From: Clostridia bacterium
Lineage (GTDB): Bacteria > Bacillota > Clostridia > UBA1212
Direction: 5' to 3'
Length of the DNA: 53,208 nt
Assembly (NCBI GenBank): GCA_017959965.1
Contig: JAGCZO010000157.1
Coordinates: forward strand, 1-53,208
The notes beneath the pieces were generated by a model. It saw nothing but the letters and a program-made list of their open reading frames with translations. It made no database searches and was not told the DNA's origin. A program made the translations under genes and the position numbers. Shown one piece after another: positions 10,978 to 27,850 of the stretch. Within the stretch, counting starts at the first letter, position 1, and every line of letters begins with the position of its first letter.

Positions 10978-11817
10978 TTATCTGGATTTCTTTTTGATGA
11001 ACACTGACACTGCGGCAAGGGCGAGCAGCGAAAGTCCGGATACCGAAATGATGCTGCCGCAGCCACTGCTTTCGGGCGCTTTTGTCGCAGGCGCGTCGGT
11101 GGCTTCCGGAGCGTCGGTAACTTCGGGAGCGTCGGTTACCACCGGAGCTTCGGTCACTTCGGGAGTAGCGGTGGGCTCGGGTGTCGCGGTAGGCTCGGGA
11201 GTGGGCGTGGGAGGCTCGGGAGTTACTTCTTCGCCTTCGTCAAGGATAACGGCGCAATGGAACCCGTCGGCTTCAATGCTGCATCCGTCGATATCAAACT
11301 CGATGCCGTCCGCAGGCTCTGCGGCGCTGAGGACCAGGTAGGCACCTTCCTCGGAGAGAAGCATAACTCTGAAGCAGTAGGTTCCGCCGGGGAGCTGATC
11401 AAAGGTCCACACGAAGTTACTGTTGTCCTTGTCGGTCGTAATAACTTCTCTTCTCAGAGCGTCTTCGGCTTTATACTCGTATCCGGACTTTGAGGAATCC
11501 GCTTTGAATATTGCCAGCTCCATTTCTCCTGCGACGATACCTTCAAACTGGTTCGGGTCGCCTGCCCAGTAAGGCATCCGGATGGTGCTGAAGGGCTTCT
11601 TGGCAAAGAACGAGACCGATGCGTAGGCGTCCTCGAACACTGTGGCTGTCCACTCGCCGCCGAGAGCTCCGGCAACTGCCGCAAACCAAAGAGTCGGCTG
11701 AGCCGCCTCGATACCTTCGGCAAGCTCCAAAACCTCGGGAGCTTCCTCGGCGGATACTGACATCATACCCATGACCAGAACGGCCAGGATCAAAAGAATC
11801 GATACTACTTTTTTCAT
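10978..11817 (-). CDS. Secreted surface protein: beta-rich module, PT linker, C-terminal SGCG-TM-basic tail
   Basis: Sec signal MKKVV...VSA; TPEPTA/TDAPE linker; ends SSGCGSIISVSGLSLLALAAVSVFIKKKSR. Confidence 0.8.
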   Translation of the reverse strand: MKKVVSILLILAVLVMGMMSVSAEEAPEVLELAEGIEAAQPTLWFAAVAGALGGEWTATVFEDAYASVSFFAKKPFSTIRMPYWAGDPNQFEGIVAGEMELAIFKADSSKSGYEYKAEDALRREVITTDKDNSNFVWTFDQLPGGTYCFRVMLLSEEGAYLVLSAAEPADGIEFDIDGCSIEADGFHCAVILDEGEEVTPEPPTPTPEPTATPEPTATPEVTEAPVVTDAPEVTDAPEATDAPATKAPESSGCGSIISVSGLSLLALAAVSVFIKKKSR

Positions 11818-11970
11818 GATGAATATTCCTTTCTTCTAGATCAATTCCGGGCAGCTTGTAATAGAGGCTGCCCTGTTATATGCGACAGTTGCCTGTCTGA
11901 AACCGAAGACAGCGAACTGTCCGGCTTTTTTCACAATTTATAACTCCGGCAACGCCAGAGTGCGCCCGGG

Positions 11971-13407
11971 TCACCTGTCGATGAAGGCAAGGTAGCCCTT
12001 GTAGGCCCAGTAAACGTCTGCCTTTGAAGCCATCTCGAGAGGGGCGTGCATGCTGAAGAGAGGCACACCGCAGTCGATCACTTCGACGCCCTTGTCGGCC
12101 ATGAACTGAGCAATGGTCCCGCCGCCGCCGGCGTTCATCTTACCCATTTCGTTGATCTGCCAGGCGACCTCGTTTTTGTCGAAAATGCCCGTGACCTCGG
12201 CGACAAATTCCGCAGGAGCATCGGAGGTTCCGCCTTTTCCGCCGCCGCCGGTGTACTTTTCGATGGCGATGCCGCCGCCCATGAACGCGGCGTTTGACTC
12301 ATCGTAGACCTCGGAGTACGAGGGATCGAAGGCCGTGGTAACGTCCGCGGAAAGCATTTTTGAGGATGCAAGGCAGCGTTTGGCGGCGAGAAGGGTCTCA
12401 CCGTAGCCGTAAAGGGAAGCCACCTCCATGGCGAAAAGCTCGAGAGAATTGGACCTTGCGCCTGTGACGCCGACGGAGCCGATCTCTTCTTTATCAGCAA
12501 AATAAGCTACGGCTGTCTTTTCGGGTACGTTCTTCATGTCGATGAGAGCCCGGAGCTCGGTGAATGCGCAGACTCTGTCGTCGTGTCCGTACGCAGCAAT
12601 GATGGCTCTGTCAAAACCGATGTCGACTGCTTTGTCCGCAGGGGTGATGACGAGCTCGGCGTTTATGAAATCTCTCTCGGAAATCTTGTATTTTTCGGAA
12701 AGATAGGTAAGTATTGCCTGCTTTACCGTGAATGGCTTATCGTCCGGATCTGCTTCATTTATGACGCCGGGCATTGAGCCTACGATAACGTTAAGGTGCG
12801 CCTCGGGGTCAATGAAGCCGTTGGCGGGCTTGCTCATCTGGGCATGGCCAAGGTGAGGGAGCAGGTCGGAGATCATGAATTTCGGATCGCCTTCGTCTTC
12901 GCCGATCCTGAAATTGACTTTGGTTCCGTCCGATCTGACGATAACGCCGTGAAGGGCGAGGGGAATGGTGGGCCACTGATACATCTTGATGCCGCCGTAG
13001 TAGTGGGTCTTGAAGTAAAGGAAATTATTCCTCTCCATCAGGGGCCAGGGCTTGAGGTCGAGCCTGGGACAGTCCACGTGGGCGCCGATCAGGTTAAAGC
13101 CCGCATCCGGGCAGGTCTTTCCCAGTCTGGCAATGAAGATGCATCTGTTGTGGTGAACGTAATAAAGCTTAGTGCCGGGAAGCTCGGCGGCAGGGATATT
13201 CTTAGCTTTGATCTCGTCAAGTGAAAGAAATCCGTCGGCTCTAAGCATCTCTACGGCCGAGTCAACGGCCTCGCGTTCGGTCTTGCTGTTGTCAAGAAAT
13301 TTTTTGTAGTCCTCGCAGAAATCGAAAACTTCCTTTTTCTTTTCGTCCGACATATACTGCCAGGAATTCTTTTTCTTAAATTCAAGGGATTCATCAAATT
13401 TTGCCAT
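11971..13407 (-). CDS. M18 family aminopeptidase
   Basis: SKTEREA, GAHVDCPRLDLKP, THYYGGIK, GHDDRVC, DKEEIGS, SADV, SMHAP. Confidence 0.9.
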   Translation of the reverse strand: MAKFDESLEFKKKNSWQYMSDEKKKEVFDFCEDYKKFLDNSKTEREAVDSAVEMLRADGFLSLDEIKAKNIPAAELPGTKLYYVHHNRCIFIARLGKTCPDAGFNLIGAHVDCPRLDLKPWPLMERNNFLYFKTHYYGGIKMYQWPTIPLALHGVIVRSDGTKVNFRIGEDEGDPKFMISDLLPHLGHAQMSKPANGFIDPEAHLNVIVGSMPGVINEADPDDKPFTVKQAILTYLSEKYKISERDFINAELVITPADKAVDIGFDRAIIAAYGHDDRVCAFTELRALIDMKNVPEKTAVAYFADKEEIGSVGVTGARSNSLELFAMEVASLYGYGETLLAAKRCLASSKMLSADVTTAFDPSYSEVYDESNAAFMGGGIAIEKYTGGGGKGGTSDAPAEFVAEVTGIFDKNEVAWQINEMGKMNAGGGGTIAQFMADKGVEVIDCGVPLFSMHAPLEMASKADVYWAYKGYLAFIDR

Positions 13408-13481
13408 AACAATCCTCCACTCAGAAGTTTGAGGTAATTATATCATCTTTGCTTTTTTTGTGCGACCTTTTTTTATATTGT

Positions 13482-13521
13482 TTAACAGATTCGTGCTGCT
13501 TTACTTAACAGATCCGTGCTG
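13482..13521. repeat. Direct repeat, 17 bp x2 (period 23)
   Basis: TTAACAGATTCGTGCTG 13482-13498 and TTAACAGATCCGTGCTG 13505-13521. Confidence 0.8.
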
Positions 13522-13523
13522 TC

Positions 13524-13561
13524 AAAAAAGAAGCCCGGAGGTTTTTATGCCTTCAGACTTC
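13524..13561 (-). terminator. Rho-independent terminator of the dockerin-protein gene
   Basis: Minus strand GAAGTCTGAAGG-loop-CCTCCGGGCTTC then TTTTTT. Confidence 0.6.
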
Positions 13562-13623
13562 TTGATCCTACACCGATCCGTTACGGACAGTGTTTATTTC
13601 TATCGATCAGCTGCTTTTAAATA

Positions 13624-14958
13624 TCAGCCGAAGGTCACGTCCCAGCCGGCGAGATATCTGGCCAGCATGATGGCATCCCAGTCGGAGACTTCACTGTCGC
13701 CGTCGAGATCAAGGGCGTCAAGATCGACATCAACGCTCCAGCCTGCCAGGTAACGCTCAAAGCTAATGGCATCCCAGTCGGAGAGCTCTCCGTCGCCGTC
13801 GGCATCGCCGAGCAGAACGTCGGTCTCGTCATCAGGATCCTCGGGACCGGTGTATTCTGCCGTTCTGAGGGCACAGTAGGGATAGAGCTCCGCTTCATCT
13901 CCGTTTACGAAGAACTCCCAATCTCCTCTTTCGATCGAATTCTCAGTGCCCTGCCAGAAACCGATAGCGCCCTCGTTTATGCGGGTGATGACTATGAGAT
14001 AACGGCGTCCGGCTTTCAGTTTGGCGCCGAAATCAAATTTCAGATCCTGGTTATCGATGTGATCCAGAACTTCGTCCGAGAATACCGGGGAGGAAGCAAT
14101 CGTGGTGTCATAATCGCCTTTCCAGACGTAAACGTCAACGCCTGCGTCAGAGTCGTGATTCTTGTTGCTCCAGGTGGGAGACTGCTTGAAGGTGAATTCC
14201 TTGATGACTTTTCCTGCGGGGACCTGCTCCGTAAGGATCGCGAATTCTTCATCTTTTCCTATTTGGTGAGGATCGTAAGCTCCGTCCACACGGGCAATGA
14301 TAGTGGTCTCCACGTCTTCTATGAAGTACGAAGGAGTCGACGTTTCGATAGATTTAAAGAACTCCGATGCGGCGACTGAGCCGTCGTAGAAAACGCCGAA
14401 AACAAAATCAGATCCGAGCACGTTTTTAGTCGATCCGAACTTTATGTATGAAGGTCCGTAAGCAGCCACGCCTGAAGGGAGAACTGTGTACGGCCCGGGG
14501 GCGTTGGGATTCAGAGTCTCCGCATACGGAGTTATCTGTGCGATCCTGAAAATATACTGGCCTGCGGGCAGAGTCTTTCCGAATCTGAACTCGACGTTAA
14601 GAGTATCTCCGTCGATGTTCCTGTCTTCGGAGAAGAGCGGGGCGGCCGCAACGGATGAATCCGCATCGCCGTCGAAAGCAAAGATCTCAAAACGTACGGT
14701 TGCATCAGCTTCATCAGCGCTTTTGCCGGCAAAGATAACAGGCAAATAGATTCCTGTGATGGGCGCCGCCGCGTTGAAAGTGGCATCGACGTTTCCGACG
14801 CAGTTTCCGTCGCTGTCAAACTGGCTCAGCCAGTATCCTACGCCGGTCGCGACGCCGGTATCGTATGAAAAAGCCAGACCTTCGTCGGCAAAAGATCCGA
14901 TCAGGCATACGGAGAGGATCATGGAAACGGCCAGAAGAACAGCTAATAATTTTTTCAT
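13624..14958 (-). CDS. Secreted protein with two beta-rich modules and a C-terminal type I-like dockerin
   Basis: Signal peptide, AGGAGG RBS; duplicated Ca-loop GDADGDGELSDWDA..RYLAGW / DLDGDSEVSDWDA..RYLAGW at about 13624-13815. Confidence 0.85.
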   Translation of the reverse strand: MKKLLAVLLAVSMILSVCLIGSFADEGLAFSYDTGVATGVGYWLSQFDSDGNCVGNVDATFNAAAPITGIYLPVIFAGKSADEADATVRFEIFAFDGDADSSVAAAPLFSEDRNIDGDTLNVEFRFGKTLPAGQYIFRIAQITPYAETLNPNAPGPYTVLPSGVAAYGPSYIKFGSTKNVLGSDFVFGVFYDGSVAASEFFKSIETSTPSYFIEDVETTIIARVDGAYDPHQIGKDEEFAILTEQVPAGKVIKEFTFKQSPTWSNKNHDSDAGVDVYVWKGDYDTTIASSPVFSDEVLDHIDNQDLKFDFGAKLKAGRRYLIVITRINEGAIGFWQGTENSIERGDWEFFVNGDEAELYPYCALRTAEYTGPEDPDDETDVLLGDADGDGELSDWDAISFERYLAGWSVDVDLDALDLDGDSEVSDWDAIMLARYLAGWDVTFG

Positions 14959-15138
14959 AAATTACTCCTCCTTTTTTTGAAACGGTGCTCCGCAGGGCAA
15001 CTGATGCACAGGCTCCGGCGCACGCTCCGTTGATATACAACCATCACTTTAACAAAGATAGAAACCATTTGCCCTTACGCATAAAAAACCTAAGCGTTCG
15101 GGAAATACTTTCCGGAATTGTTCGTGGTCATTGCCAAC

Positions 15139-15167
15139 ATTTTAAACTATCGCAGGGCGAAAATCAA
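15139..15167 (-). promoter_or_regulatory. Putative sigma-A promoter of the dockerin-protein gene (implies a leader of about 170 nt)
   Basis: Minus strand TTGATT-17 nt-TAAAAT. Confidence 0.5.
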
Positions 15168-15236
15168 CAGTGTTTATCGGCTGTAGACAGGGATGGAAAG
15201 GCGGTAAAAGAGAAGTAAAAGGGCGTGACGCGGTAC

Positions 15237-16178
15237 TCAGACTGCGGAAAGGATGTGGGAATTTCTGACGGAGGAGTCGGATATAAGCGCGTTTACGGCA
15301 TATGCCTGCGCCTCAAGGGAAGGACCGGGATCGGGAAGGAGACCCCGCTCTTTAAGACAATGCGTTATGGAACGAGAAACGTTTTCGATACCGCTGATTT
15401 TTCTTTCCGCGTCGGAAGATGAATTGGCGGTGGTCATAAGGCCGTTCAGGACCGGGATAATATCGCAAAAAGAGGGAATTTCACGCAGAGCGCGGAAGGC
15501 CCATTTGTAGTAGGGACGGTACTTGCCGGAAAGCAGAAAGGCGGCGGAGACCGCGTTGTCGACGAATTCGAAGACCGCCAGCTGGGCTGCTTCGGGCTCT
15601 CCGTGTTTTATACACCGTTCGTAGTTGTACTGGCCGGACTGGCCCATGAGAAGGAGCCTGCCCGCAAGCTTTTTAAGCATCACATCCCGGGGAAAAAACT
15701 CCAGCCTTTCGCGTATCGAGGTGAGAAGCCCGAAATTGTCGAAAAAGATCCGGCCCGAGGTCGCTTCAAGCAGAGCCTGTTCGGGCAGGGAGAACCACAT
15801 GCCGAAGGTAAGCTCTCCGTCCTCCGAACCGACGGTCTTACTGAAAAAATCCGGGATCCTGATGACCCCGTGACGGGGGCCTCCGACGGGAGCCAGCCGC
15901 TCGCGCTTTACGCCCATAAACTCCTTGGGGAGCTTTGCGTAAGCTTTTTCAAGAAGAAATGCGTCACGGCGGCTGACGGTGTCCTCGCCAGGGAGAAAAA
16001 TGCAGAAGCCCGGCTCGAAATCGTGGTCTCTGGATACTTCGTCATCAAAGCCAAGGCACTCTGAACCGCTGCCGGCCAGCCCGACGGCAATGAAAGGCAG
16101 CAGCCCGCTGAATTCGTTTTCAAGCAAAGGCCGCCCGAAGTTTTCAAAATATTGTTCCGAAAGCTCAATTCCCCGCAT
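15237..16178 (-). CDS. DUF4037-domain protein with N-terminal nucleotidyltransferase-like motif
   Basis: Start reassigned to MRGIELS (ATG 16178); GLAGSGSECLGFDD..SRDHDF.PGF, GQYNY.R, PYYKW. Confidence 0.8.
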   Translation of the reverse strand: MRGIELSEQYFENFGRPLLENEFSGLLPFIAVGLAGSGSECLGFDDEVSRDHDFEPGFCIFLPGEDTVSRRDAFLLEKAYAKLPKEFMGVKRERLAPVGGPRHGVIRIPDFFSKTVGSEDGELTFGMWFSLPEQALLEATSGRIFFDNFGLLTSIRERLEFFPRDVMLKKLAGRLLLMGQSGQYNYERCIKHGEPEAAQLAVFEFVDNAVSAAFLLSGKYRPYYKWAFRALREIPSFCDIIPVLNGLMTTANSSSDAERKISGIENVSRSITHCLKERGLLPDPGPSLEAQAYAVNALISDSSVRNSHILSAV

Positions 16179-16189
16179 GGATCCGTGTA

Positions 16190-17041
16190 TTATTTGCCTG
16201 AGTAGATACGCTCCGCCTCGCCTTCCAGGTACTCGGAAGCAAGAAAAAATCCGTAGTGACCGAAAACAGGGGCGCATTTTTCGCAGACGAAGGCGTAGTA
16301 CCCGTCCCTCGGCGCGGCTGTTTTCGTGAGATAGTCATATGCTTTGTCGAGGAGCTCAAAGATCTCGGGCTCGCCGTCCACCTCGCCCTTGTCGGCGGCA
16401 ACTACGTCCGCAACGTTCAGGCAGGTGATGGCCCGTTCCAGCTCGCCGAATTCCACCTTTGACATGTATTCGTCGGCTTTTGCGTATGCTTCGAGGGCGT
16501 CGCCGTACCGCCTCAGCGCTTTACAGCAAAGCCCCATGTTATTGTAAAGTCCTCCGAGAAGGGTGGAAGACACGTTTTCAAGTTGTTTGAAGGCCAGCTC
16601 GGCTTTTTTGAAAAGGACGATGGAGCGCTCGTTCTCGCCAAAAGCATTGCAGGCGGTGGCTGCGTTGACGTAAGTGGTGCCGGCGCTCATCGAATCGCCG
16701 AGATCCAGCTCGTCAATGAGGCTCAGCGCCAGGTCCGCGTTGGCGAGAGCTTTTTCCTTTTCGCCGCACTTGCGGTAGTGGCCGATGAGCTCGTTGGCGA
16801 TCACAAGCATGCCTCTTTTGTCGTTGCCGAGCCTTGCCTCCTCAAGCCAGTAGAGCAGATGCCTTTCCGCCCCCGCGTAATCCTTTTTTGCCAGATATTC
16901 ATCGTTTTTTTCGATGATGCGCTGCTGGGGCACGGAGCGGACCTCGGGCTCTTTTCCGAAGGGCTCGTCGCACAGAAGACAGCGGGGCTCCGCGAAATCC
17001 TCGGGACCTATCACACCGTTTTGAGAAGGATCGTTATTCAT
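16190..17041 (-). CDS. Tetratricopeptide-repeat protein
   Basis: Helical repeats NELIGHYR, TTYVNAATA, GLYNNMGL, AITCLNVAD; adjacent to DUF4037 gene. Confidence 0.75.
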   Translation of the reverse strand: MNNDPSQNGVIGPEDFAEPRCLLCDEPFGKEPEVRSVPQQRIIEKNDEYLAKKDYAGAERHLLYWLEEARLGNDKRGMLVIANELIGHYRKCGEKEKALANADLALSLIDELDLGDSMSAGTTYVNAATACNAFGENERSIVLFKKAELAFKQLENVSSTLLGGLYNNMGLCCKALRRYGDALEAYAKADEYMSKVEFGELERAITCLNVADVVAADKGEVDGEPEIFELLDKAYDYLTKTAAPRDGYYAFVCEKCAPVFGHYGFFLASEYLEGEAERIYSGK

Positions 17042-17093
17042 GTCAAACCTCAGTAAAGCGCAGGCGCGTTCATGGAGCGTACCTTAAAAAAGG

Positions 17094-18380
17094 TTATTCT
17101 TCGCAATTTTCGAGAAGCTTCTCCATGGAGCAGATCTTGACGCACACGCAGAGGATGTTTATTGCAGCCTCAAGCTCCTGGATCGGGGGAAGGGTGGGGG
17201 CAATGCGGATGTTGGAGTCGTTGGGATCCTGCCTGTAGGGGAAGGTGGCGCCCGCGGGCGTGAATTTCACGCCGCACTCTTTGGCCTTGGCAACGACCGC
17301 CGAAGCGCAGCCCGGAAGAGTGTCGATGCTTATAAAGTAGCCGCCGTCGGGCTTTGTCCATTTTAGAATGCCGAGACCGCCAAGCTCCTTGGCGAGTATG
17401 TTGTTCACCGCCTCGAATTTCGGCAGAAGGATCTCGGCGTGCTTTTTCATGTGAGCGATAATGCCGTCGTAGTCCTTGAGAAAACGGGCATGCCTCAGCT
17501 GGTTGACCTTGTCGTAGCAGATGGTCTGGACCGTGAGGCAGGAGAGCAGATATTTGATGTTCTTTTCCGAGGCGCCGACAGCGGAAATGCCGGAGCCCGG
17601 GAAGGTGATCTTGGAGGTGGAGCAGAACAGGAACACTCTGTCGGGGTTGCCGGCTTCCTTGCAGGCTTCAAGCATGTTGAGCTGCTTCGCCGGGGCTTCC
17701 CTGAGAAAATGAACCGTGTAGGCGTCGTCGCACATGATCCTGAAATCTTTGGCGCCGGTCTCCATTGCCGCGAGACGGCGGATCTTCTCGTCGGAAAAGA
17801 CCTCGCCCGTGGGGTTGGAGTACTTGGGTATCATCCAGATACCCTTAACGCAGGGGTCCTTCACGAGCTCTTCCACCATGTCCATATCCGGTCCGTCGCC
17901 CTGAAGGGGCACCGCGATAAGCTCAAAACCCAGCTTCTCCGTGATGAGAAAGTGACGGTCGTAGCCGGGCACGAGGCAGATCCATTTGAGCTTCTCCTCT
18001 TTGACCCATGGCCTGCAGCCCTCCGTACCTGTGCCGAAAAGCATGAAACGGACCAGCAGGTCGTACATCAGGTTGAGACTGGAGTTGCCGCCAACGACGA
18101 TCTCCTCCGTCCCCACGCCAAGCATCTCGGCCATGAGCTTCTTCGCCTCCGGAATGCCGTCGAGCACGCCGTAGTTTCTGACCTCCTGGTCGGAGATCGA
18201 GCTGAAGCCCTTCAGGTACTTCTGATTTTCCAGCTCGTTGGACAGGTCCAGCTGTATCCTGCAGGGCTTGCCCCGGGTCATATCGTAGCTGAGCCCCAGG
18301 TTCTTGTAGCTGTTGAATATCTTGTACTCCGCGTCAAGGAGTCCTTTAAGCGTCTTTTTGTCGAGGTCTTTGTACTGCAT
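17094..18380 (-). CDS. PLP-dependent aminotransferase class I/II (Rv3722c-like aspartate aminotransferase type)
   Basis: DMTRGKP, RNYG, PGYDRHF, PKYSNPTG, DDAY, STSKIT, NIRIAP. Confidence 0.88.
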   Translation of the reverse strand: MQYKDLDKKTLKGLLDAEYKIFNSYKNLGLSYDMTRGKPCRIQLDLSNELENQKYLKGFSSISDQEVRNYGVLDGIPEAKKLMAEMLGVGTEEIVVGGNSSLNLMYDLLVRFMLFGTGTEGCRPWVKEEKLKWICLVPGYDRHFLITEKLGFELIAVPLQGDGPDMDMVEELVKDPCVKGIWMIPKYSNPTGEVFSDEKIRRLAAMETGAKDFRIMCDDAYTVHFLREAPAKQLNMLEACKEAGNPDRVFLFCSTSKITFPGSGISAVGASEKNIKYLLSCLTVQTICYDKVNQLRHARFLKDYDGIIAHMKKHAEILLPKFEAVNNILAKELGGLGILKWTKPDGGYFISIDTLPGCASAVVAKAKECGVKFTPAGATFPYRQDPNDSNIRIAPTLPPIQELEAAINILCVCVKICSMEKLLENCEE

Positions 18381-18389
18381 GTTAATCCT

Positions 18390-18415
18390 CCATGTTATTT
18401 GCCATGTTATTTGCC
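18390..18415. repeat. 12-bp tandem duplication spanning the amidohydrolase stop codon
   Basis: CCATGTTATTTG x2 (18390-18401, 18402-18413). Confidence 0.75.
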
Positions 18416-19234
18416 GGCAAGCTTTGCCTTAACTTCGCCGATGAATCTCACCGCGTTCTCTCTGAAGATCATATTCCTTTCCGTGTCCGTGAGATCAAGC
18501 TTCATGAAATCCTCAAGCTCCGCGGTGTGGTTCTGCATCGGGTAGTCCGTGCCCCAGAAAACGTGTTCTACGCCGTGGGCCCTTATGATATCCACGGACT
18601 CTTTGGGATCGATAAATCTAATCGAACTGCTGGTGTCAAAATAGATGTTGGGGTTTCCCAGGTACCCCTTGAGCGCCACAACGCTTTCCCACTCGCTGTA
18701 GCCGCCAAGGTGAGCGCAGATGCAGGTGAGCTTTGGAAAATCCTTCAGGATCTTAAGAACTCTTTCGGGATTGGAATAGCTGTACCTCTTGTCTCCCGTG
18801 TGGAACAGTATGGGCAGCCTTCCTTCGGCGGCCTCGTAGATCGGATACGCCTCTCTGTCGTCAATGGCAAATTTCTGAAAATCCGGGTGCAGCTTTATAC
18901 CGACAAGGCCGATCTTAGTGATCCTGTCGACCTCTCCGCAGATGTCATCAAACCCTGGGTGCATCGTCCCGAAGCCAATGAACTCCGGATGTCTGCTCAC
19001 TTCTCCCGAAACGAAGCTGTTTATGGCGGTCACCTGAAGAGGGGTTGTAGCCGTGGAGCAGACAAGGTACTTGTCAACGCCGATCTCGCTTCCGGACTCT
19101 ATCAGATCCTCAGAGAACCCCTTTTTGACCATAGGGATCCCGTAGAACCCGCCAATGGACGACACCGCCTTTTCCGCTATTTTTTGCGGAAAAATATGGG
19201 TATGCATATCGTATATGAACTTTTCCACAAACAT
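18407..19234 (-). CDS. Amidohydrolase family protein (Amidohydro_2-like)
   Basis: DMHTH, GIKLHPDFQ, FHTGD, AHLGG, WGTDYP; GGAGG RBS. Confidence 0.85.
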   Translation of the reverse strand: MFVEKFIYDMHTHIFPQKIAEKAVSSIGGFYGIPMVKKGFSEDLIESGSEIGVDKYLVCSTATTPLQVTAINSFVSGEVSRHPEFIGFGTMHPGFDDICGEVDRITKIGLVGIKLHPDFQKFAIDDREAYPIYEAAEGRLPILFHTGDKRYSYSNPERVLKILKDFPKLTCICAHLGGYSEWESVVALKGYLGNPNIYFDTSSSIRFIDPKESVDIIRAHGVEHVFWGTDYPMQNHTAELEDFMKLDLTDTERNMIFRENAVRFIGEVKAKLAGK

Positions 19235-19493
19235 CCCTCCCTTTGCAATAACGGGGATCCGGCTTTTTGAAAATTACAGCCGGTAAGAATAAAAGTAGGA
19301 TTCTACCACCGTGAGAGAGATTATTCAAGAGCGGGGAACGATTAATTGAGCGTGTTTCTTCTTTTGCGGAAAAAACCGCGGGTCCGCCGATACACGGAAT
19401 GAGAGCAAAAAACGGGCCCCGTACCGTTCCGGAAGTGTTTGTCTCTTTTTGAGACCTGCGGAAACGAGAGGGCCCGAAACACTTTAGTCGTTT

Positions 19494-20108
19494 TTATCTT
19501 TCAGGCATATCATCCGGAGAAGCCTGAGCGATGTTGATCTCAAATCCCGCTTTCGCAAAGGACGCTTTGCAGAAGGCGTAGGGGGCTTCCGGCGTAACAG
19601 TGACCACCGGCATGTTGGAGGCCCTGGTGGCGGTGTGAGTGAGGTGGACCTGATGCTGTCCGAAGGGAACGCTGACTCTGACGGATTCTTTATTGCCAAG
19701 GTGTCCGAAGGGCTGACTGTCGATGTAAATGCCCATTCCGACTGCGCAGCCCATCATGTTGCCCATGCGGTAGATCTGTATGAAGCCGCCCTTTTTGAGC
19801 GGGGCTCCGCAGGTGGGGCAGGCGGTCTGGCTGTCGTTGCCGTCGAAAACGTGGCCCCCGTCGCAGCGGTATCTGACCTTGACGGCCGCAAACCGGCGGT
19901 TGAAGGTCTCAAGGTAGGGACCGGGAACGGTACTGTACTGAACACCGCCCGGGACGGGCCGGGAAACAGGCTGCGGGTCAGGCTGATAAACGGGTATTGG
20001 CTGTGGTGCGGGCTGTGGGGCAACGTTGACTGAGCGGCGGAAGCCGCAGGCGGGACAGAACTGTGCTGTGGGGTTTACCGATTTTCCGCATTTCGAACAA
20101 AATGGCAT
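19494..20108 (-). CDS. Zinc-ribbon domain protein
   Basis: FCSKCG..FCPACG, Pro/Gln linker, second C..H/CPTC site, beta-rich C-terminal domain; GGAGG RBS. Confidence 0.7.
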   Translation of the reverse strand: MPFCSKCGKSVNPTAQFCPACGFRRSVNVAPQPAPQPIPVYQPDPQPVSRPVPGGVQYSTVPGPYLETFNRRFAAVKVRYRCDGGHVFDGNDSQTACPTCGAPLKKGGFIQIYRMGNMMGCAVGMGIYIDSQPFGHLGNKESVRVSVPFGQHQVHLTHTATRASNMPVVTVTPEAPYAFCKASFAKAGFEINIAQASPDDMPER

Positions 20109-20204
20109 GGCTTTGATCCTCCGAAAAAAATTGTCAAAAATTTTGGTTACTATGAAATATTTCGCATTTCTGCGGGAATATGATACAAACTAAAAGTGCG
20201 GCTG

Positions 20205-21683
20205 TCAACCCGGACCGGTACGGAGCATGTATTTTCTGATGAAATACGAGGGGGTGCAGCTCCAGGCGTGGCAGAAGCTGTTCATAGCGGGAGAGCCGTA
20301 GGGTGAGGCTTCCGGATCTCCGGGCACGAATACCTCGGGGAAGCAGTCATAGCCGCGGTCAAGCATTCCGCCCCAATAGCTTTTGAGCAGGGCAAAAGCT
20401 TCGTCCTTAAGACCGGAAAGGATAAGCGCTTCGACGAAATAATGCATCGCATAGGGCGCCACGGGACTCACAAGCTCCGCTTTGAGAGCCGCCTTCATCA
20501 TTTCTTTCTGCTCCCGGGGCCCGAGAACTCCTGCGAGTGCCGCCCACATCTGGGAGTGGGCCGACAGCTGACCTGAGGCTCCCCGGAAAAGACGGATATC
20601 GGGGGAATACATATCAAGCAGCGCCGATGAAACGTCTTTGATCCGTTCTTCCAACGAAGCTTGTTCCCAGGCTGTGCCCACGGTATCGGCGAGATAAAGA
20701 GCCTCTTTGAACATTGCCAGGATCATTCCGAGGGCGGCGCAGGACTTGTCAAGAGACGGACACCAGTCGATGAAGAAAAGGTCGACGTTGGCGGAACGGC
20801 CGCACTGTTCGAAACTTTTGTAAGCAAGCTCGGTCTGGCGGTAAGCGGCGGGCCAGAGCTCCTTCAAAACGCCAATGTCACCCGTTGCCCTGTAGTAGTC
20901 TGCCAGGGCTCCGACAAAAAGCAGGGCGTAGTCATGGAGCACCCAGGACTGGTTTTTAAGCACCGGCTCGTGGAAGACCGCTGAGGAAAGAAGCCCGTCG
21001 TCATGGGGGAGGCCGGCGAACAGATACAGACAGCGGAGGACCAGGCCGTTGTTTTTGAAGGTATAATAGTTCGTCTTGGCCTGGAGGTAAAGGTCGCCCA
21101 GCCAGAGCCTCCGGTCCCTCTTGGGGCCGTCCTCGAAGACCTGCTGCATGCAGTCTCTGAGCGTCAGGAGGGAGACCTTGTCAAGCTTCACGAGAAGGGG
21201 GTCCGTGTTTTCCGGAAGAGGCGCGACCTTGGTCATATCGGCGGAGGTCACGGCCCTCACAAAACAGTCCTTGTACACCACGGAGTAGCTGGTGTTTGAC
21301 GGAAAGCGGATCTTCACGTATCTGAAGGAGTAGCGGCGGTGAAGCTCGATGGGCGCGTAAGGATCGTCAATGAGTACGCTTGCGTTCTGGAACCAGGAGC
21401 GGGACATGCCGCCGGTGTAGGGCTCATCCGTATTTTCCCGCAAATTTTCGAAAAATCTGAACTCGACTGCCAGCGGCGCGTCCGCCGCGTCGTCCCCGGG
21501 CCTTTTCACGTCAAGGGCCAGCGTCAGATAACCGACGAAATGGGAGCCGAAATCCAGAGTGAAACCGTCTCCGTCCCTCATCAGTCTGTCCTTGCCGGGC
21601 ATTCCGGAGACCGGCCGCACCGTCGTCTCGTAAAGGACGGGCATAAGGTCATGCGCTTTTTTCAAAAAACGGTCATCCTTCAT
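20205..21683 (-). CDS. GH78-like alpha-L-rhamnosidase family protein (no signal peptide)
   Basis: LDFGSHFVGY, RYSFRYV, DGPKRDRRLWLGD, SFCHAWS; ATG at 21683 overlaps the upstream TGA (ATGA). Confidence 0.8.
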   Translation of the reverse strand: MKDDRFLKKAHDLMPVLYETTVRPVSGMPGKDRLMRDGDGFTLDFGSHFVGYLTLALDVKRPGDDAADAPLAVEFRFFENLRENTDEPYTGGMSRSWFQNASVLIDDPYAPIELHRRYSFRYVKIRFPSNTSYSVVYKDCFVRAVTSADMTKVAPLPENTDPLLVKLDKVSLLTLRDCMQQVFEDGPKRDRRLWLGDLYLQAKTNYYTFKNNGLVLRCLYLFAGLPHDDGLLSSAVFHEPVLKNQSWVLHDYALLFVGALADYYRATGDIGVLKELWPAAYRQTELAYKSFEQCGRSANVDLFFIDWCPSLDKSCAALGMILAMFKEALYLADTVGTAWEQASLEERIKDVSSALLDMYSPDIRLFRGASGQLSAHSQMWAALAGVLGPREQKEMMKAALKAELVSPVAPYAMHYFVEALILSGLKDEAFALLKSYWGGMLDRGYDCFPEVFVPGDPEASPYGSPAMNSFCHAWSCTPSYFIRKYMLRTGPG

Positions 21684-24184
21684 TTCTCTTTGCGCCTCTT
21701 TGTTTTTTTGCATAACGCCAATGCGCCCGCGGCAAGGGCCGCCGGAAGAGCTCCCGCAGAGACCCCGGCGCCGCAGCCGGAGGGATCCTTGCCCGCGGGG
21801 TATGCCGCGGCCGCGAACTGGTATTTAAACCTTCCGCCGGGGGCGGTATCTCCCTTGGTGTAAAGCTCCAGAGGATCGCTGCCGTCCGCAAGGTTGTTGT
21901 CCGCCCATTTAAAATTCAACACGAAGGGAACTCCTCTGCCGAGGCCCAGGGCCTCACGGGGGATCTTCAGCTGAAGGATGTTGGCGTTTACCGAAAGCTC
22001 TGCCTCGCCGGTCTTTTCCCAGCTCCAGCCGCCGGAGGATCTCTCAACGGCAGTTATGGAGGAGGCGCCGGGGCTCAGACGGTTGACGATATAATTGAAG
22101 GATTCCCAGGATGGAAGCTTCACTGCCTTGCCGTTTACGGACTCAACGTCTATCAGGAGCCTCATCCAGAGTTCGTCCGTCGGAGACGTGATGTCTTCTG
22201 CAGTTTCGACTCTGAAATACACGAAGTCATTGTCGTAGGAGGCTTTGGCGGACACGATATCGTTGCGGCCGCTCTGATCCTGATACAAGTAATACTCGCC
22301 GGTGGCCTCGTTTTTGTATCCCTTGCAGTCTCTGTCAAATGTGTCGCCGGGGTAGCTCTCGTAAACGAGCTTAACGTCGTCCCAGCCTGCGCCGGTACCG
22401 ATGTCAATTGTGGCGGGCTCCTCCGCTACCGAAGCGGCGGGAACGCCTTTGTACTTTCTGATGAAGCTGCAGAGCTGGTAGTAGTAATTGTCCTTCAGGT
22501 CGCCTTTCGAGGGCTCGATGTCGCGGCTTAATTCGTCGCTGAAATTGTCTGGAAAAGCGTTTTCGACGCCCCAGAAGTCCTCAAAGCGGCCGGCGACGCC
22601 TTCGTTCCAGCCTGTGACCCATATGAACTCGGGATCCACGCTGAGGGCATACTCCCATTGCTCCTGAAAGTACGCTCCGTAGAGTTTGGCGTCGGGACGG
22701 CTGTCGTAATCGCCTTTCGAAGGCATATAGTGGCGCCCGAAGACCTTGAACTTGTCGTTGTTCATGGCCGTAAGGTGTGTCTCGGCGCACCAGTTGTGGG
22801 CAATGGCCACTGCGACCTCCTCGGGGGTGCCGTCAGGGTTCCTGTTTATGAGCTGGGGGGTGGTGGAGATCCAGTTCCAGAGCTGAAAGCTGTCCGTCAC
22901 CTCGGACTGGATGGCTCCCATGACGATGGGATCGCCGGATTCGCTCTGTACCTGGACGTGGTCCCGGGACTGGGCGTGGTTGATCACCCGGTAGTTGAAG
23001 AATTCGTAGATCTCCTTGTCCTCTTCCTTAGAAAGGTTCAGCCTTCCGGGATAGCCAACCATGAGGGGCTTGCCCTTCCAGTAAAACCAAAGCTCCCTAT
23101 AGAGTCCGTCCTTGTAGATATTTTTGTAGATCTCCCGGAGCTGGACCGCCACGTCGTTGTACTCGAACATGGGAAGCATGAAGGATATCTTCGGCGTGTT
23201 CACTCCGTCGGCCCTGGCGAGAGACCAGACCTTCAGCAGCGTCAGAACGTCGTCAATGAAGGTGGCGGTGCCGTTGGTGTTGTCGAAGAACACCGCATCC
23301 ACTCCCGCATCGGCAAGGAGCTCAGCCTGGCGCCTCAGGACCCATTCGTCGGAGCTTCTGTAGTAGCCCCAGATCGGCTCGTTCCAATGGTACGCGCCGG
23401 CGTGTCCCCAGAGAGGACTTGAATAGTCGTTCTTTATCTCGGGGTGCTCCCGAAGTATCTCCGTGATGTTCCTTGTGCCCGATGCGGTGAGACTGGTGTG
23501 CCAGGTGTGGAAGAAAAGTCCCACAGTTTTGTTTTCCCTTACGGTGCTGCTGTAGGAATTGTCAACGGTCCTGCCAAGCTCGTCGATGGCCACCCAGGTG
23601 CCTTGCGAAGAGACGAGCTTCACAACGTTTTCGGAGATCCCCGCCAAAGTGCCCCCGGCGTCTTTAAAAATGATCCTCGAAAGGATATTCCCCTGCCTGA
23701 CGGAGGCGTTGAAGTAGGTCCTTGCGTAGGGCGAGACCGCGGAATCGATGCTCAGCCGGACGCCTCCCAAAGTGTTCTTGATCAGGGCAACGTACTCTCC
23801 CGCAGGCGCCGGACAGTCCATCCGAAGCCAGGTCTGCATGTCGAAATCCTCGAATTTCCGCGTGAAAATCGCACTGCTCCGGGCAGACTCCCCATAGCTT
23901 CCCTTCCATTCGTGAAGCTCCACGGTGAGGCTCGTACCGCTCCCGGAAGCCGTCTTGGCAACGTATATTTCGAAAGCGTCTATTTCCTGACACGATTTAA
24001 ACTGTATGCCGTAGATATTGCCCGCGGTCTTTTCAAGGGAAAAGTCCGACTCCGGGCAGCACAAATACTGATAGCTTCCGGCCGCCATAGATCTTAAAAC
24101 ACCCCCGGTGAAAAATGAGGAGGCGACTGCCGCCAATGCGACCGTTACCGCCAATGTGATCCTGATAAATCGTTTTATACTCAT
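21680..24184 (-). CDS. Secreted GH71/GH99-like putative glycoside hydrolase, paralogue A; C-terminal SGCG-TM-basic tail
   Basis: Signal peptide; DELGR, VGLFFHTW, HWNEPIWGYY, DAGVD..FFDNTN, VTGWNE, SRDIEP, FKWADN, GDTAPGGRF. Confidence 0.7.
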   Translation of the reverse strand: MSIKRFIRITLAVTVALAAVASSFFTGGVLRSMAAGSYQYLCCPESDFSLEKTAGNIYGIQFKSCQEIDAFEIYVAKTASGSGTSLTVELHEWKGSYGESARSSAIFTRKFEDFDMQTWLRMDCPAPAGEYVALIKNTLGGVRLSIDSAVSPYARTYFNASVRQGNILSRIIFKDAGGTLAGISENVVKLVSSQGTWVAIDELGRTVDNSYSSTVRENKTVGLFFHTWHTSLTASGTRNITEILREHPEIKNDYSSPLWGHAGAYHWNEPIWGYYRSSDEWVLRRQAELLADAGVDAVFFDNTNGTATFIDDVLTLLKVWSLARADGVNTPKISFMLPMFEYNDVAVQLREIYKNIYKDGLYRELWFYWKGKPLMVGYPGRLNLSKEEDKEIYEFFNYRVINHAQSRDHVQVQSESGDPIVMGAIQSEVTDSFQLWNWISTTPQLINRNPDGTPEEVAVAIAHNWCAETHLTAMNNDKFKVFGRHYMPSKGDYDSRPDAKLYGAYFQEQWEYALSVDPEFIWVTGWNEGVAGRFEDFWGVENAFPDNFSDELSRDIEPSKGDLKDNYYYQLCSFIRKYKGVPAASVAEEPATIDIGTGAGWDDVKLVYESYPGDTFDRDCKGYKNEATGEYYLYQDQSGRNDIVSAKASYDNDFVYFRVETAEDITSPTDELWMRLLIDVESVNGKAVKLPSWESFNYIVNRLSPGASSITAVERSSGGWSWEKTGEAELSVNANILQLKIPREALGLGRGVPFVLNFKWADNNLADGSDPLELYTKGDTAPGGRFKYQFAAAAYPAGKDPSGCGAGVSAGALPAALAAGALALCKKTKRRKEK

Positions 24185-25141: not shown

Positions 25142-25270
25142 TAATTGCCGGAAGCGATAACGCCGGTAAGCGCCGGGGATCCTTCTCCGCGGGGCCCCAC
25201 TCCCTCCTTTTTTTCCCCGGCGGGGTGTAGTATAATTGGCTTGCAAAAGCAACTGAAAAGAGGGAAAAAA

Positions 25271-27850
25271 GTGAACGGATCAAAACGTTTTATTGTCAGG
25301 ATCGCATTGGCGGCAGTCGCCGCGGTAATTCTCGCGGGAATATCGGCGTTTTCGGGAGGATCCGCGGCCGCGGAAGACGCAGGCTCTGTCGTGTACCCTT
25401 TGTGGTACGAAAAATACGGCGCCCGGGACGAGGACACGTGGAAACCGGGCATGAGTGTCCAGTACCAGATATCGACCACTGTGCCGATAAAATCCGTGAC
25501 GCTGAACTATTTTCACTCCACGTCCTCAGAGACGGGACCTGTCGGACTTGAGTTCACGGTGAGAGTGTACAAGTGGGACACCAATATTCTGCAGTCCATC
25601 GGGGCGGAGCCTATATTAACGCAAAAATGCGTATCATATGAGAAAAAGGAAGCCGATTCGGACTACGCGGTCACATGCGATATGTCCGCCGATCCCCTTC
25701 CAAAGGGTGAATACGTTTTTGAATTCGAGAACAATAACAGCTTTTCAGTTTTGCTGTCGAGGCTCATGCCCGCGCCCACGGGCGTCAGGAGCTACCTGGC
25801 GGGAAGGGGCTGGTACGGTTCATTCCCCGGCAGCATTGAATTTACGGAGGACGCGAAATTCGTTTTCCGCTCCGCCACGTCAAACTATAAGCTTGTCTAC
25901 AACGAACCCCCGGAGGAGCCTGTGCTGACCGAGGACGACCCCATCGTTTCCCTTGGCGTCGATTCCACAAAGTGGGGCGCGGTGGACGGCCTGGGAAGAA
26001 CTCTGCCGGACAACAGTGAGACCGGCGATAAGAAGGAAAAGCTCGTCGGCATTTTCTACTGGACTTGGCACATGGGAAACCGCTCCAAGGAAAATCCCAA
26101 AAACATTAACAATATTCTTGAGGAATATCCTGAGGCGGTGAACGACTACTACCATCAGGTGTGGCAGACGGGAGGCGCCAATTTCTGGAATGAGCCCATA
26201 TACGGATACTATATCGAATCGGACGACTACGTTCTCAGAAAGCACGCGGAGCTGCTTGCGGACGCGGGCATTGACTTTGTTCTTTTCGACTGCACGAACG
26301 GCTCCATGGTGTGGACCGAAGCCTACATGAATCTGCTCAGGGTCTGGTCCGATGCCCGCAAGGACGGTGTAAAAACTCCTAAAATTGCGTTTATGATGCA
26401 ATTTGACTACAGCGGCAACACCAGGGCCTCCCTCTGGGATATCTACACGAACCTCTACAAGAAAGGATTTTACAAGGATCTTTGGTTCTATCTTGACGGC
26501 AAGCCCATGGTGATGGCCTGGGAGACGGGACTTGACACCAACGTCGGCGATGAGGCCGAGATCAGGTCCTTCTTCACCTACAGACATCCCATTGCCGGCT
26601 ACTGGGCCCAGGACGGAACCGACGACAGCTGGGGCTGGCTCAGCGCGTATCCCCAGGCCTGCTACTACAACGAGGACGGCACGGTGGAAATGACCACGGT
26701 GGGTATTGCCCAGAACGCCAATTACGAGACCCGGAGTCTCAGCGCCATGAACAGCGGCAAAAACATGGGCCGGTCCTACGCCGCGCAGCCGAATTATTCC
26801 TACAGCTACACTTACCGGGGACGAAGGATCACGGTGGACTCCAAGATCGAGAACAGCAAGCTCTACGGCCGCAATTTCCAGGAGCAGTGGGACTACGCCA
26901 TCTCCAAGGACCCGGAGATAGTTTTCGTGACGGGCTGGAACGAATGGATCATGGGCAGGTACGAGGAATGGTGCGGCGTCAGCAACGCCTTCCCGGATCA
27001 GTGCAACGACGAGAACTCCAGAGACATTGAACCCTCAAAAGGCGACCTCAAGGACTATTACTACTACCAGCTCGTCGCCAACGTCAGACGCTTCAAGGGG
27101 ACCTCGGAGCAGGACTATCAGCCGGACCCGAAGACTATTGATTTCTCAGGCGAAATGAGCCAATGGGACGACCCCTCGATCGTGACCTACAACCACTACG
27201 CGAATAATACTTTGCCAAGGAACAACATCGGCTTCGGCGAGCTGAAATACGTTTCCGAAGGTATCAGAAACGACTTCGTACAGACGAAAGTCTCCTACGA
27301 CAAAGACAATCTGTGGTTCTACGTAAAGACCGCCTCAGGCATAACTCCCTTCGAGGCCGGCAACTGGATGACTCTGCTCATAGACTCCCGGGCTGCCACG
27401 GCGTTTTCGAAGGACTGGGAGGACTTCGAATACATAATAGGGCGCGAAGGCACCACGGAGGATACGATGGTCCTGGAAAAGAGCACCGGCGGCTGGAACT
27501 GGGAATCCGTGGGAAACGTCAAATACCGCGTGTCGGGAAATGAAATGGTGATCGAGGTGCCCCGGAAGCTGCTGGGCGGCGCGGGCAGCTCCCTTGATTT
27601 CGGTTTCAAGTGGTGCGACAATAACCTTGCCGAGGGCGACATAATGGACCTTTACACGGACGGGGACGCGGCCCCCGGCGGAAGGTTCGTGTTCAGATTC
27701 GCGACGAAGCCCTCAGTTAAAAACGGCTGGGTGATACCGGTGATCATAGTCTGCTGCGCAGTCGCGGCGGCGGCCGCATTGGCGGTCGTGATCGTCGTTC
27801 TTAAGAAGAAAAAAGCGGAAAAACCCGCCGAAAACGTTAAAAACGATTGA
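25271..27850 (+). CDS. Secreted GH71/GH99-like putative glycoside hydrolase, paralogue B; C-terminal TM anchor
   Basis: GTG start 25271 gives a signal peptide; DGLGR, VGIFYWTW, FWNEPIYGYY, DAGIDFVLFDCTN, VTGWNEW, SRDIEP, FKWCDN, GDAAPGGRF; hydrophobic tail plus KKKK. Confidence 0.7.
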   Translation: MNGSKRFIVRIALAAVAAVILAGISAFSGGSAAAEDAGSVVYPLWYEKYGARDEDTWKPGMSVQYQISTTVPIKSVTLNYFHSTSSETGPVGLEFTVRVYKWDTNILQSIGAEPILTQKCVSYEKKEADSDYAVTCDMSADPLPKGEYVFEFENNNSFSVLLSRLMPAPTGVRSYLAGRGWYGSFPGSIEFTEDAKFVFRSATSNYKLVYNEPPEEPVLTEDDPIVSLGVDSTKWGAVDGLGRTLPDNSETGDKKEKLVGIFYWTWHMGNRSKENPKNINNILEEYPEAVNDYYHQVWQTGGANFWNEPIYGYYIESDDYVLRKHAELLADAGIDFVLFDCTNGSMVWTEAYMNLLRVWSDARKDGVKTPKIAFMMQFDYSGNTRASLWDIYTNLYKKGFYKDLWFYLDGKPMVMAWETGLDTNVGDEAEIRSFFTYRHPIAGYWAQDGTDDSWGWLSAYPQACYYNEDGTVEMTTVGIAQNANYETRSLSAMNSGKNMGRSYAAQPNYSYSYTYRGRRITVDSKIENSKLYGRNFQEQWDYAISKDPEIVFVTGWNEWIMGRYEEWCGVSNAFPDQCNDENSRDIEPSKGDLKDYYYYQLVANVRRFKGTSEQDYQPDPKTIDFSGEMSQWDDPSIVTYNHYANNTLPRNNIGFGELKYVSEGIRNDFVQTKVSYDKDNLWFYVKTASGITPFEAGNWMTLLIDSRAATAFSKDWEDFEYIIGREGTTEDTMVLEKSTGGWNWESVGNVKYRVSGNEMVIEVPRKLLGGAGSSLDFGFKWCDNNLAEGDIMDLYTDGDAAPGGRFVFRFATKPSVKNGWVIPVIIVCCAVAAAAALAVVIVVLKKKKAEKPAENVKND

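Follow-up and report, generated by a model that had tools for sequence, protein, structure and literature searches.

Two secreted proteins encoded on a contig of a Clostridia bacterium (JAGCZO010000157.1, assembly GCA_017959965.1; the whole stretch of 53,208 nucleotides (nt) analysed is referred to as the window) end in the same manner, with a Gly-Cys pair followed by an uncharged span and a basic cluster. Our analysis of this shared ending, hereafter the GC tail, suggests on balance that it is a modular tripartite sorting signal found in Clostridia-type Bacillota of gut and rumen, the Cys of which would be lipidated and the helix of which would be clipped by a CPBP protease. As far as sequence comparison can tell, the GC tail is a recurrent module and not a coincidence.

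A shared ending on two proteins of the window

P0001 (279 amino acids (aa); 10978-11817, minus strand) comprises, according to its open reading frame (ORF) and translation, a signal peptide, a small all-beta passenger, a Pro/Thr-rich linker and the GC tail. The signal-peptide-like N-terminus (MKKVVSILLILAVLVMGMMSVSA; aa 1-23, 11749-11817, minus) was recognized by eye, its cleavage site being an estimate, and the AlphaFold2 (AF2) model has a helix at residues 2-21. The passenger (aa 24-198, about 175 aa; 11224-11748, minus) is predicted to be all-beta by the AF2 model, which is of low confidence (predicted local distance difference test (pLDDT) 57.6) and gives strands only in this part, and no Pfam or NCBIfam (20.0) family matched the protein. 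A linker rich in Pro, Thr, Glu and Ala (aa 199-251, 53 aa; 11065-11223, minus) leads to the tail (10978-11064, minus), which by translation, DNA pattern and tail alignment consists of G252-C253-G-S, 20 uncharged residues, KKKSR and the stop, the protein ending in ...ESSGCGSIISVSGLSLLALAAVSVFIKKKSR*.

P0002 (834 aa; 21680-24184, minus) is built from a signal peptide, a beta-sandwich, a barrel resembling glycoside hydrolase (GH) families GH99 and GH71, a second beta-sandwich, a short linker and the GC tail. Its N-terminus (MSIKRFIRITLAVTVALAAVASS..) looks like a Sec signal by eye and is helical in the AF2 model, and the passenger covers aa 36-792 (21809-24079, minus; domain layout from AF2, family core 195-792). 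The translated tail (21680-21778, minus) reads G803-C804-G-A, an uncharged span that is rich in Ala and Gly and contains a Pro and another Cys, then KKTKRRKEK and the stop, the C-terminus being ...KDPSGCGAGVSAGALPAALAAGALALCKKTKRRKEK*. The two minus-strand genes thus end alike, G-C-G being followed by uncharged and then by basic residues.

The first-pass annotation of the window had reported these two endings, and they are there letter for letter, with the strand to be taken as minus; a plus-strand reading of the tail coordinates was rejected because it translates into stops and nonsense. It had also credited both proteins with N-terminal Sec signals and with the lack of an LPXTG motif, and our inspection agrees on both points: the signals are visible by eye and as N-terminal helices in the AF2 models, and a motif scan of P0001 and P0002 found no LPXTG, NPXTG or (S/P)PXTG.

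Among all six-frame ORFs of the window of at least 60 aa, a regular expression for a Cys, 14-26 uncharged residues and a basic C-terminus matches P0001 and P0002 only, and a degenerate DNA pattern for the motif gives one match in the window (the P0001 tail) and none in 100 shuffles. One could suppose that the resemblance arose by chance, or through shared ancestry of two paralogous genes, and has no general meaning. In a profile comparison by hhalign, the P0001 passenger (aa 65-192) does match the first beta-sandwich of the P0002 family (probability 91%, E 1e-6), a remote link which suggests that the two proteins are not wholly unrelated, and BLASTP of P0001 against P0002 aligns the tails alone, at a non-significant E of 31. 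Against this explanation stand the absence of pattern matches in the shuffles, the 2223 background ORF ends, none of which scored above 11.2 bits with the tail model described below, and the presence of the tail in other genomes on GDSL-lipase, Big_3, Laminin_G_3 and many unannotated passengers; we regard it as refuted, with hardly any probability left to it.

Recurrence and anatomy of the tail

A search with P0001 returned 16 matches, 12 of which carry the tail. Four of these are orthologues (46-58% identity), and all four keep it in the form (K)KGCG[SG], helix, [KR]KK; the other eight bear different passengers, from which a Pro/Thr linker leads to this same ending. Two matches (P0016, P0017) are homologous to tail-bearing proteins yet end in a plain helix, and two are spurious similarities of the linker. 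The public names seen for a few of the tail-protein matches are 'hypothetical protein' and 'PT domain-containing protein'. A search of protein clusters with the tail profile, which is not a census, gave at least 18 matches among 8000 candidates, 13 of them the seeds.

In total, 46 non-redundant tails were collected. The 43 carriers with enough passenger fall into 12 groups separable by BLAST once tails and linkers are removed, and the passengers recognized by Pfam are a GDSL lipase (L005, L036, L044), Big_3 (L028) and Laminin_G_3 (L073), most having no family. Full-length tail-gene ORFs from the genome sample described below start with MKK-type signal peptides. The first-pass annotation had made its proposal depend on the tail being carried by more than a few proteins and on its Cys being conserved in orthologues, and the 12 passenger groups and the four P0001 orthologues bear it out in both respects. 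P0173, a tail-bearing cluster of the P0002 family (..GGCRSAVPALMPLAAAAACAFLHGKRRRDDTPEV), has 2278 member sequences in public read-derived sets; at least this one tail carrier is very common in the sampled communities.

The Gly-Cys pair is invariant in all 46 tails by construction, the Cys lies 25-32 residues from the C-terminus in 44 of them, and the uncharged span measures 16-22 aa in 45. Position C+1 is Gly in 38 tails (Arg in four, Lys in two, Gln and Ser in one each) and C+2 is Ser in 29 (Gly in 12, Ala in four, Asn in one), followed at C+3 and C+4 by Val, Ile, Phe or Leu, that is by two beta-branched or aromatic hydrophobic residues; C+1 to C+4 are fixed by the search pattern in the 22 genome-derived tails, later positions being free. 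Gly, Ser, Ala and Pro abound at C+5 to C+8 (C+7, for example, is Gly, Ser or Pro in 28 of 46), and the share of Gly, Ser and Pro in the outer half of the helix is 0.34 as against 0.20 in plain tails. The rest of the helix is composed mainly of Ala (27%), Val (19%) and Leu (12%), and the basic cluster is biased towards Lys (104 Lys to 65 Arg over the 46 tails). The two residues preceding the Gly are mainly Lys, then Ser, Glu or Gly, and the 25 residues further upstream form an acidic linker of Thr, Ala, Glu and Pro. Thirteen tails have a second Cys, mostly deep in the helix.

A hidden Markov model (HMM) of the 46 tails gave a median leave-one-out score of 37.9 bits, with 42 tails above 17 bits; the low scorers were P0046, P0069, L051 and P0107. 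The P0001 tail scored more than 28.1 bits, outside the ten lowest, and the P0002 tail 23.9 bits. The best of 19 plain transmembrane (TM) tails reached 16.8 bits and the best of the 2223 background ORF ends 11.2 bits. Because the leave-one-out scores of most tails exceed those of both controls, the tails form a class that can be modelled and that is distinct from plain anchors.

Hosts of the tail

A species-genome collection was scanned with the DNA pattern GGCTGCGGCDSNNTNNTNN{45,57}ARRARRARR, giving at least 119 stretches, with 2-kb flanks for 80 of them. A strict in-frame filter (GCGx, 14-26 uncharged residues, a basic cluster and a stop) was passed by 22 of the 119 listed loci; for the other 97, the in-frame readout fails in 91 and six have none. 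Going by record titles, 20 of the 22 positive loci belong to Bacillota, compared with 21 of the 97 non-positive ones (Fisher p 1.6e-9). The 20 come from metagenome-assembled genomes (MAGs) labelled Clostridia, Eubacteriales, Oscillospiraceae, Lachnospiraceae and Ruminococcus, together with one Bulleidia, and their hosts are ruminants, horse, rabbit, chicken and the human gut. Among the listed loci, the tail is thus almost confined to Clostridia-type Bacillota, mostly of gut and rumen.

The two positives outside Bacillota are L051 (Patescibacteria), which is doubtful and has no linker, and L099, from a Methanobacteriota archaeon. In the latter MAG, the 129 aa of protein encoded at L099:1-387 (plus) end in ..KPKEGCGSIIVVGGVLLAAAPAVVVFGKRRTEG, the same architecture outside Bacteria, and no CTERM model matched this tail at E<=0.05.

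Several tail targets per genome are indicated by two loci in genome RGIG4231 (L072, L077), by L071 and by the two genes of the window. At L071, a tandem duplication has left two adjacent genes (3-278 and 519-2081, plus) with one and the same tail, ..KKGCGAVVAAPVVALVAIVGVAFVAKKKD. Tails in the flanks beyond those found by the pattern gave no usable enrichment, with one in the positive loci (the L071 tandem copy) and a spurious one in the negative loci.

Comparison with known C-terminal signals

All 46 tails score below the cut-offs of the Cys-type CTERM models in NCBIfam 20.0, in line with the first-pass annotation, which had seen the novelty of the tail in the lack of such a match, and our literature searches found no description of a Cys-type signal of this kind in Bacillota. 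Cys-containing tripartite signals are so far on record from one archaeal and three diderm bacterial lineages, and MYXO-, JDVT-, Synerg- and CGP-CTERM are presented as Cys-containing signals cut by CPBP/Rce1-type proteases (10.1101/2023.06.07.544157). A term search of the text of that preprint, supplements not included, found no mention of Clostridia, Firmicutes or Bacillota.

The GC tail resembles MYXO-CTERM in its tripartite build, in the invariant Cys of a Gly-Cys pair directly before the helix, and in having many different Sec-exported passengers, apparently several per genome. The nearest approach in score is that of L055 to TIGR03382 'GC_trans_RRR' (15.6 vs 15.85 bits), the best E-value for TIGR03901 is 2, and none of the 46 tails reaches a cut-off. 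GCGC is frequent in MYXO-CTERM, whereas the GC tails usually have one Cys and no GCGC; the basic cluster is Arg-rich there and Lys-biased here. MYXO-CTERM is restricted to Myxococcota and Bradymonadales, in contrast to the Bacillota in which nearly all positive loci were found, and its route includes a type II secretion step that has no counterpart in monoderm Clostridia, which have no outer membrane. No MrtX-, MrtC- or MrtP-type enzyme was identified for the GC tails.

Synerg-CTERM (TIGR04564; enzyme MrtS) shares with the GC tail a short Ser/Gly-rich signature closed by one invariant Cys that directly precedes the helix, and it gives some tails their highest score with any Cys-type model (L073, 19.4 bits), its cut-off of 22.5 bits lying above all 46. 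Its Leu-rich helix is described as having an invariant Pro (10.1101/2023.06.07.544157), whereas a Pro occurs in 17 of the 46 GC tails and their helix is rich in Ala and Val. Its hosts, Synergistota, are diderm with an associated type II secretion system and belong to another phylum than those of the GC tail. JDVT-CTERM (NF033191, NF033192; enzyme MrtJ), which is sporadic in proteobacteria, is likewise a Cys-type signal and has its CPBP enzyme encoded beside the target, as is seen once here (L027, see below). Only L088 matches the JDVT model, with 16.0 vs 27 bits and over the helix; the DP motif of JDVT-CTERM was seen in none of the listed GC tails, and JDVT-CTERM has one target per genome, whereas several are indicated for the GC tail. 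The preprint's account of the JDVT neighbourhood mentions no Lgt gene (10.1101/2023.06.07.544157). The archaeal CGP-CTERM has an invariant Gly-Pro right after the Cys; the GC tails never have Pro at C+2, and the CGP model is absent from their matches.

Sortase signals, both LPXTG/sortase A (TIGR01167) and the Ruminococcus NPXTG type (NF033846), share with the GC tail the Gram-positive host, the Sec signal, the Pro/Thr linker, the helix and the basic cluster. The LPXTG_anchor model is passed by two of the 46 tails (P0004, 17.2 bits; P0107, 16.0 bits; cut-off 15.9 bits) over model positions 11-33 only, which are the helix and basic part, and the Ruminococcus NPXTG model gives weak matches for 11 of 24 tails, the best at 19.0 bits against a cut-off of 23.5. 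The pentapeptide is replaced by Gly-Cys in the GC tail, and its expected product would be a lipid anchor instead of a link to peptidoglycan. Classical lipoproteins, which are processed by Lgt and then Lsp, likewise have a Cys at the outer membrane face beside a helix, with Gly at -1 and Gly or Ser following. They differ in topology, which is inverted in the GC tail where the helix lies C-terminal to the Cys, in the Leu at -3, which the GC tail does not have, and in the protease, which is signal peptidase II there and would be CPBP for the GC tail.

Assignment of the GC tail to the sortase signals, or to MYXO-, Synerg-, JDVT- or CGP-CTERM, was rejected on motif and score. Its sequence features instead mark it as a putative, so far unmodelled Cys-type sorting signal, Lys-rich and of monoderm hosts, which may work in the manner of MYXO-, Synerg- and JDVT-CTERM and is a member of none of them.

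Four anchors on one passenger family

The AF2 model of P0002 (pLDDT 90.9) has a beta-sandwich at 38-175, a barrel at about 197-580 and a second beta-sandwich at 600-792, followed by a low-confidence linker (803-817) and a helix (815-833). Foldseek searches with single domains gave GH99 endo-alpha-mannosidases (probability 1.0, TM-score 0.49-0.54 on the target) and GH71 alpha-1,3-glucanases as the best hits; a sequence search found no relative in the PDB, and Pfam has no family for the protein. The core (aa 195-792) has 2438 cluster representatives at E<=1e-3, and the structural model suggests that these may form a large, Pfam-less and so far unclassified glycoside-hydrolase-like family.

Inspected by eye, 10 of the 150 best representatives of this family end in GC[GRKQS]S tails (P0022, P0024, P0040, P0046, P0066, P0069, P0093, P0105, P0107 and P0135) and 17 in plain TM+basic tails; P0108 has a truncated ending, ..SGCGC.., and the remainder of the 150 end at the domain or in dockerin-like, type IX secretion system-like or other C-terminal modules. 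P0107, a fragment with 60% identity to P0002, carries KKGCGS, and P0019, at 56% identity the closest full-length representative, ends in a Cys-free, plain TM+KKKKK tail. The window itself holds three paralogues of P0002. The first (25145-27850, plus), full-length and divergently transcribed, has 38% identity to P0002 (E 3e-150) and a plain TM+KKKK tail with no GC motif, its alignment with P0002 stopping exactly where the tails begin; its listed TTG start is probably too far upstream. The second (34954-36810, plus) has an N-terminal lipobox (LLASGC) and the third (36832-39291, plus) a cohesin and a dockerin.

One passenger family thus uses four anchoring modes within 17 kb (GC tail, plain TM+KKKK, N-terminal lipobox, cohesin plus dockerin), which argues that the GC tail specifies a fate other than that of a plain helix. 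Since P0019 and the paralogue at 25145-27850 have plain TM tails, the GC motif is optional for this family. Such an exchange of C-terminal modules on one passenger is the behaviour of a sorting signal. An optional motif agrees with a sorting module that can be swapped, but it equally shows that a plain anchor can serve much the same purpose.

The latter point leads to the main alternative, in which the tail is an ordinary, unprocessed C-terminal anchor and the Gly-Cys pair is a juxtamembrane helix cap, a site of reversible S-acylation or a metal or thiol contact. It gains from the plain TM+Lys tails on the same passenger in close relatives and in the adjacent paralogue, from the lack of a nearby processing enzyme in the window and in most flanked positive loci (see below), and from the confinement of the weak LPXTG_anchor matches to the TM and basic part of the model. 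An unprocessed anchor leaves unexplained, however, the constant spacing of an invariant Gly-Cys from the C-terminus in 12 passenger groups, the enrichment of Gly, Ser and Pro in the outer half of the helix, the clean separation from plain TM tails by the HMM and the narrow taxonomic range. Extracellular disulfides, moreover, are unlikely in strict anaerobes. Every other described invariant-Cys signal of this architecture is assigned to a CPBP enzyme in the text of the preprint (10.1101/2023.06.07.544157). We therefore take the unprocessed anchor to be possible, if somewhat unlikely, and hold lipidation with CPBP cleavage, with modest confidence, to be the most likely mechanism.

A locus with Lgt-like and CPBP genes

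One locus, L027, a 4.8-kb contig of a Lachnospiraceae MAG, joins the tail to candidate enzymes. Its first gene (383-2047, plus) encodes a tail protein ending in ...TTEKSGCGSVVALSLMALVIPAAVVVAKKKEN and is followed by an Lgt-family gene (2204-2989, plus; PF01790, E 1.3e-32, 113.5 vs 24.9 bits) and by a CPBP gene (2970-3788, plus; PF02517, E 8e-14, 52.1 vs 22.4 bits) that overlaps the Lgt-like gene by 20 nt. By way of control, the negative loci had 0 LGT and 0 Rce1-like domains in 142 ORFs of 42 loci, 59 ORFs of 21 further loci lying outside the scan. Atlas look-alikes confirmed the LGT and Rce1-like families for the two enzymes. The CPBP protein has EETAFRG, FGGIH and HGIFD, and hence all of EExxxR, FxxxH and HxxxD, which we take to be the catalytic motifs of CPBP proteases; a PDB sequence search with it gave only noise, and a predicted complex with the last 45 residues of its neighbour scored 0.04, which speaks neither for nor against an interaction. 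A YG..R...E block of the Lgt-like protein aligns to Escherichia coli Lgt (5AZB). As its scores lie far below both housekeeping Lgt equivalog cut-offs (75.9 vs 118.9 bits for TIGR00544 and 94.5 vs 334 bits for NF000778), this protein looks like a specialized paralogue.

The tail could also be a signal processed by another class of enzyme (a sortase variant, a rhomboid or rhombosortase-like, an exosortase-like or a so far undescribed protease), leading to wall attachment or release, with the L027 pair being lipoprotein machinery that is adjacent by chance. This fits with a single locus linking the tail to Lgt and CPBP genes, with the weak matches to the Ruminococcus NPXTG model, and with the description of Staphylococcus aureus LnsB as a CPBP-like protein that acts in ordinary N-terminal lipoprotein acylation (PMC7387801). 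LnsB is described there as being without the CPBP catalytic residues, which the L027 protein keeps, and the Lgt-like protein of L027 scores far below housekeeping Lgt. P0001 and P0002 have no sortase motif, and the sortase-model matches cover only the TM and basic region. A Cys signature, moreover, marks CPBP-linked signals in the preprint's account and not those of rhombosortase (GlyGly) or exosortase (PEP) (10.1101/2023.06.07.544157). Taken together, we consider a different enzyme class quite improbable.

In a Ruminococcus MAG, a gene for a PAP2-family lipid phosphatase (L059:239-1240, minus) lies directly downstream of a GC-tail gene on the same strand; this may be a link to lipid handling or a coincidence.

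Proposed mechanism

The sequence of events that we propose draws on established membrane-protein rules for its first two steps and on analogy for the other three. The N-terminal signal peptide would route the protein through Sec, and the C-terminal helix would act as a stop-transfer segment, so that, as the positive-inside rule predicts, the basic residues would remain cytoplasmic and the Cys would come to lie at the outer membrane face. After lipidation of the Cys thiol by an Lgt-type transferase, the chain would be cut by a CPBP/Rce1-type glutamic intramembrane protease immediately C-terminal to that Cys, in the outer half of the helix, which is flexible and rich in Gly, Ser and Pro. The mature protein, lipid-anchored at its C-terminus, would stay on the cell, with the long linker carrying the glycosidase-like, lipase-like or lectin-like passenger through the wall. 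The model is MYXO-CTERM, for which a two-step process has been proposed, of Cys lipidation by a possibly Lgt-like enzyme followed by CPBP cleavage (PMC11980579; 10.1101/2023.06.07.544157). Cleavage by MrtX is reported to require the Cys, the lipidating enzyme being unknown and Lgt the leading candidate despite the inverted topology (PMC11980579). A more specific version, in which a dedicated two-enzyme cassette as in L027 (divergent Lgt paralogue plus CPBP) runs a C-terminal lipoprotein pathway in gut Clostridia by inverted-topology lipidation and subsequent clipping of the helix, appears unlikely to us.

Several points weigh against lipidation and CPBP cleavage. Both steps are something that we infer, as a sequence cannot show either. 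The first-pass annotation had recognized no processing enzyme in the window, and we also found none, with no CPBP, rhomboid or exosortase domain among its 38 ORFs and no polytopic membrane protein in a crude hydropathy scan. An LGT or Rce1-like neighbour occurs in one of the 17 positive loci with 2-kb flanks and in none of the other 16, and a tblastn search of the 119 listed loci and the window turned up neither L027 enzyme a second time. A search for an Lgt-CPBP fusion, by comparison of the CPBP protein with longer proteins, found none, which is weak evidence. Within L027, the Lgt paralogue has an unusual central motif (GRLGCLCAGCCHG) that makes its activity uncertain, and the CPBP protein falls outside the named Mrt families, scoring 19.6 vs 75 bits with MrtJ and having no match at E<=0.01 to the other Mrt models. 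By analogy with LnsB, the Lgt-CPBP pair could serve classical lipoproteins. The close relatives of P0002 with plain TM tails, P0019 foremost, show that the passenger can be anchored without the motif. Finally, the pattern-fixed positions C+1 to C+4 reduce what the alignment can say, and the DNA scan covered GGC-TGC-GGC codons, AT-richer genomes and GC[RKQS] variants being outside the sample.

Housekeeping myxosortases are reported never to be in an operon with a target, as opposed to the JDVT enzyme (10.1101/2023.06.07.544157), and neighbourhoods free of enzymes are therefore expected for a system with many targets. The sorting-signal proposal of the first-pass annotation is thus supported in part: the recurrent tail stands, and the cleaving and lipid-anchoring half, linked to enzymes at L027 alone, remains an analogy.

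Setting of the two genes in the window

The window has a G+C content of 54%, and the Pfam domains among its 38 ORFs include dockerin, cohesin, GH78-like, GH127, GH1 and a PHP-domain DNA polymerase III alpha subunit (as a family, from Pfam domains only). Judged by this gene content, it looks like part of a carbohydrate-degrading Clostridia-type genome. The P0001 passenger is weakly similar to a dockerin protein at 13624-14958 (minus; BLASTP E 0.004), and a small, Pfam-less beta-sandwich module is apparently common to this protein, to P0001 and to the N-terminus of the P0002 family. A GH78-like rhamnosidase ORF (20205-21713, minus), as listed from its first ATG, shares with P0002 the final 34 nt of the latter, which include the basic cluster of the tail, suggesting either translational coupling or a rhamnosidase start further downstream. 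A zinc-ribbon protein at 8808-9875 (minus) has a single C-terminal helix ending in ..MIIMFLLR and no signal peptide, and seems to be tail-anchored in a different way that has no relation to the GC tail.

Significance

Surface display in Bacillota is usually credited to sortase, S-layer modules, dockerins, N-terminal lipoproteins and plain helices. If the proposed sorting signal is real, its Clostridia version would be the first Cys-type C-terminal signal in monoderm Bacillota, and it would call for a new NCBIfam-style model and for the re-annotation of surface proteins that are listed as 'hypothetical' in rumen and gut Clostridia and many of which act on carbohydrates or lipids. The operon of substrate, Lgt paralogue and CPBP gene at L027 bears on the question of the Cys-lipidating enzyme in the myxosortase field (PMC11980579). 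Should the cassette version hold, an operon of the L027 type would name the enzyme class that every Cys-type CTERM system, MYXO-CTERM among them, has been lacking, and the system would work without an outer membrane or type II secretion.

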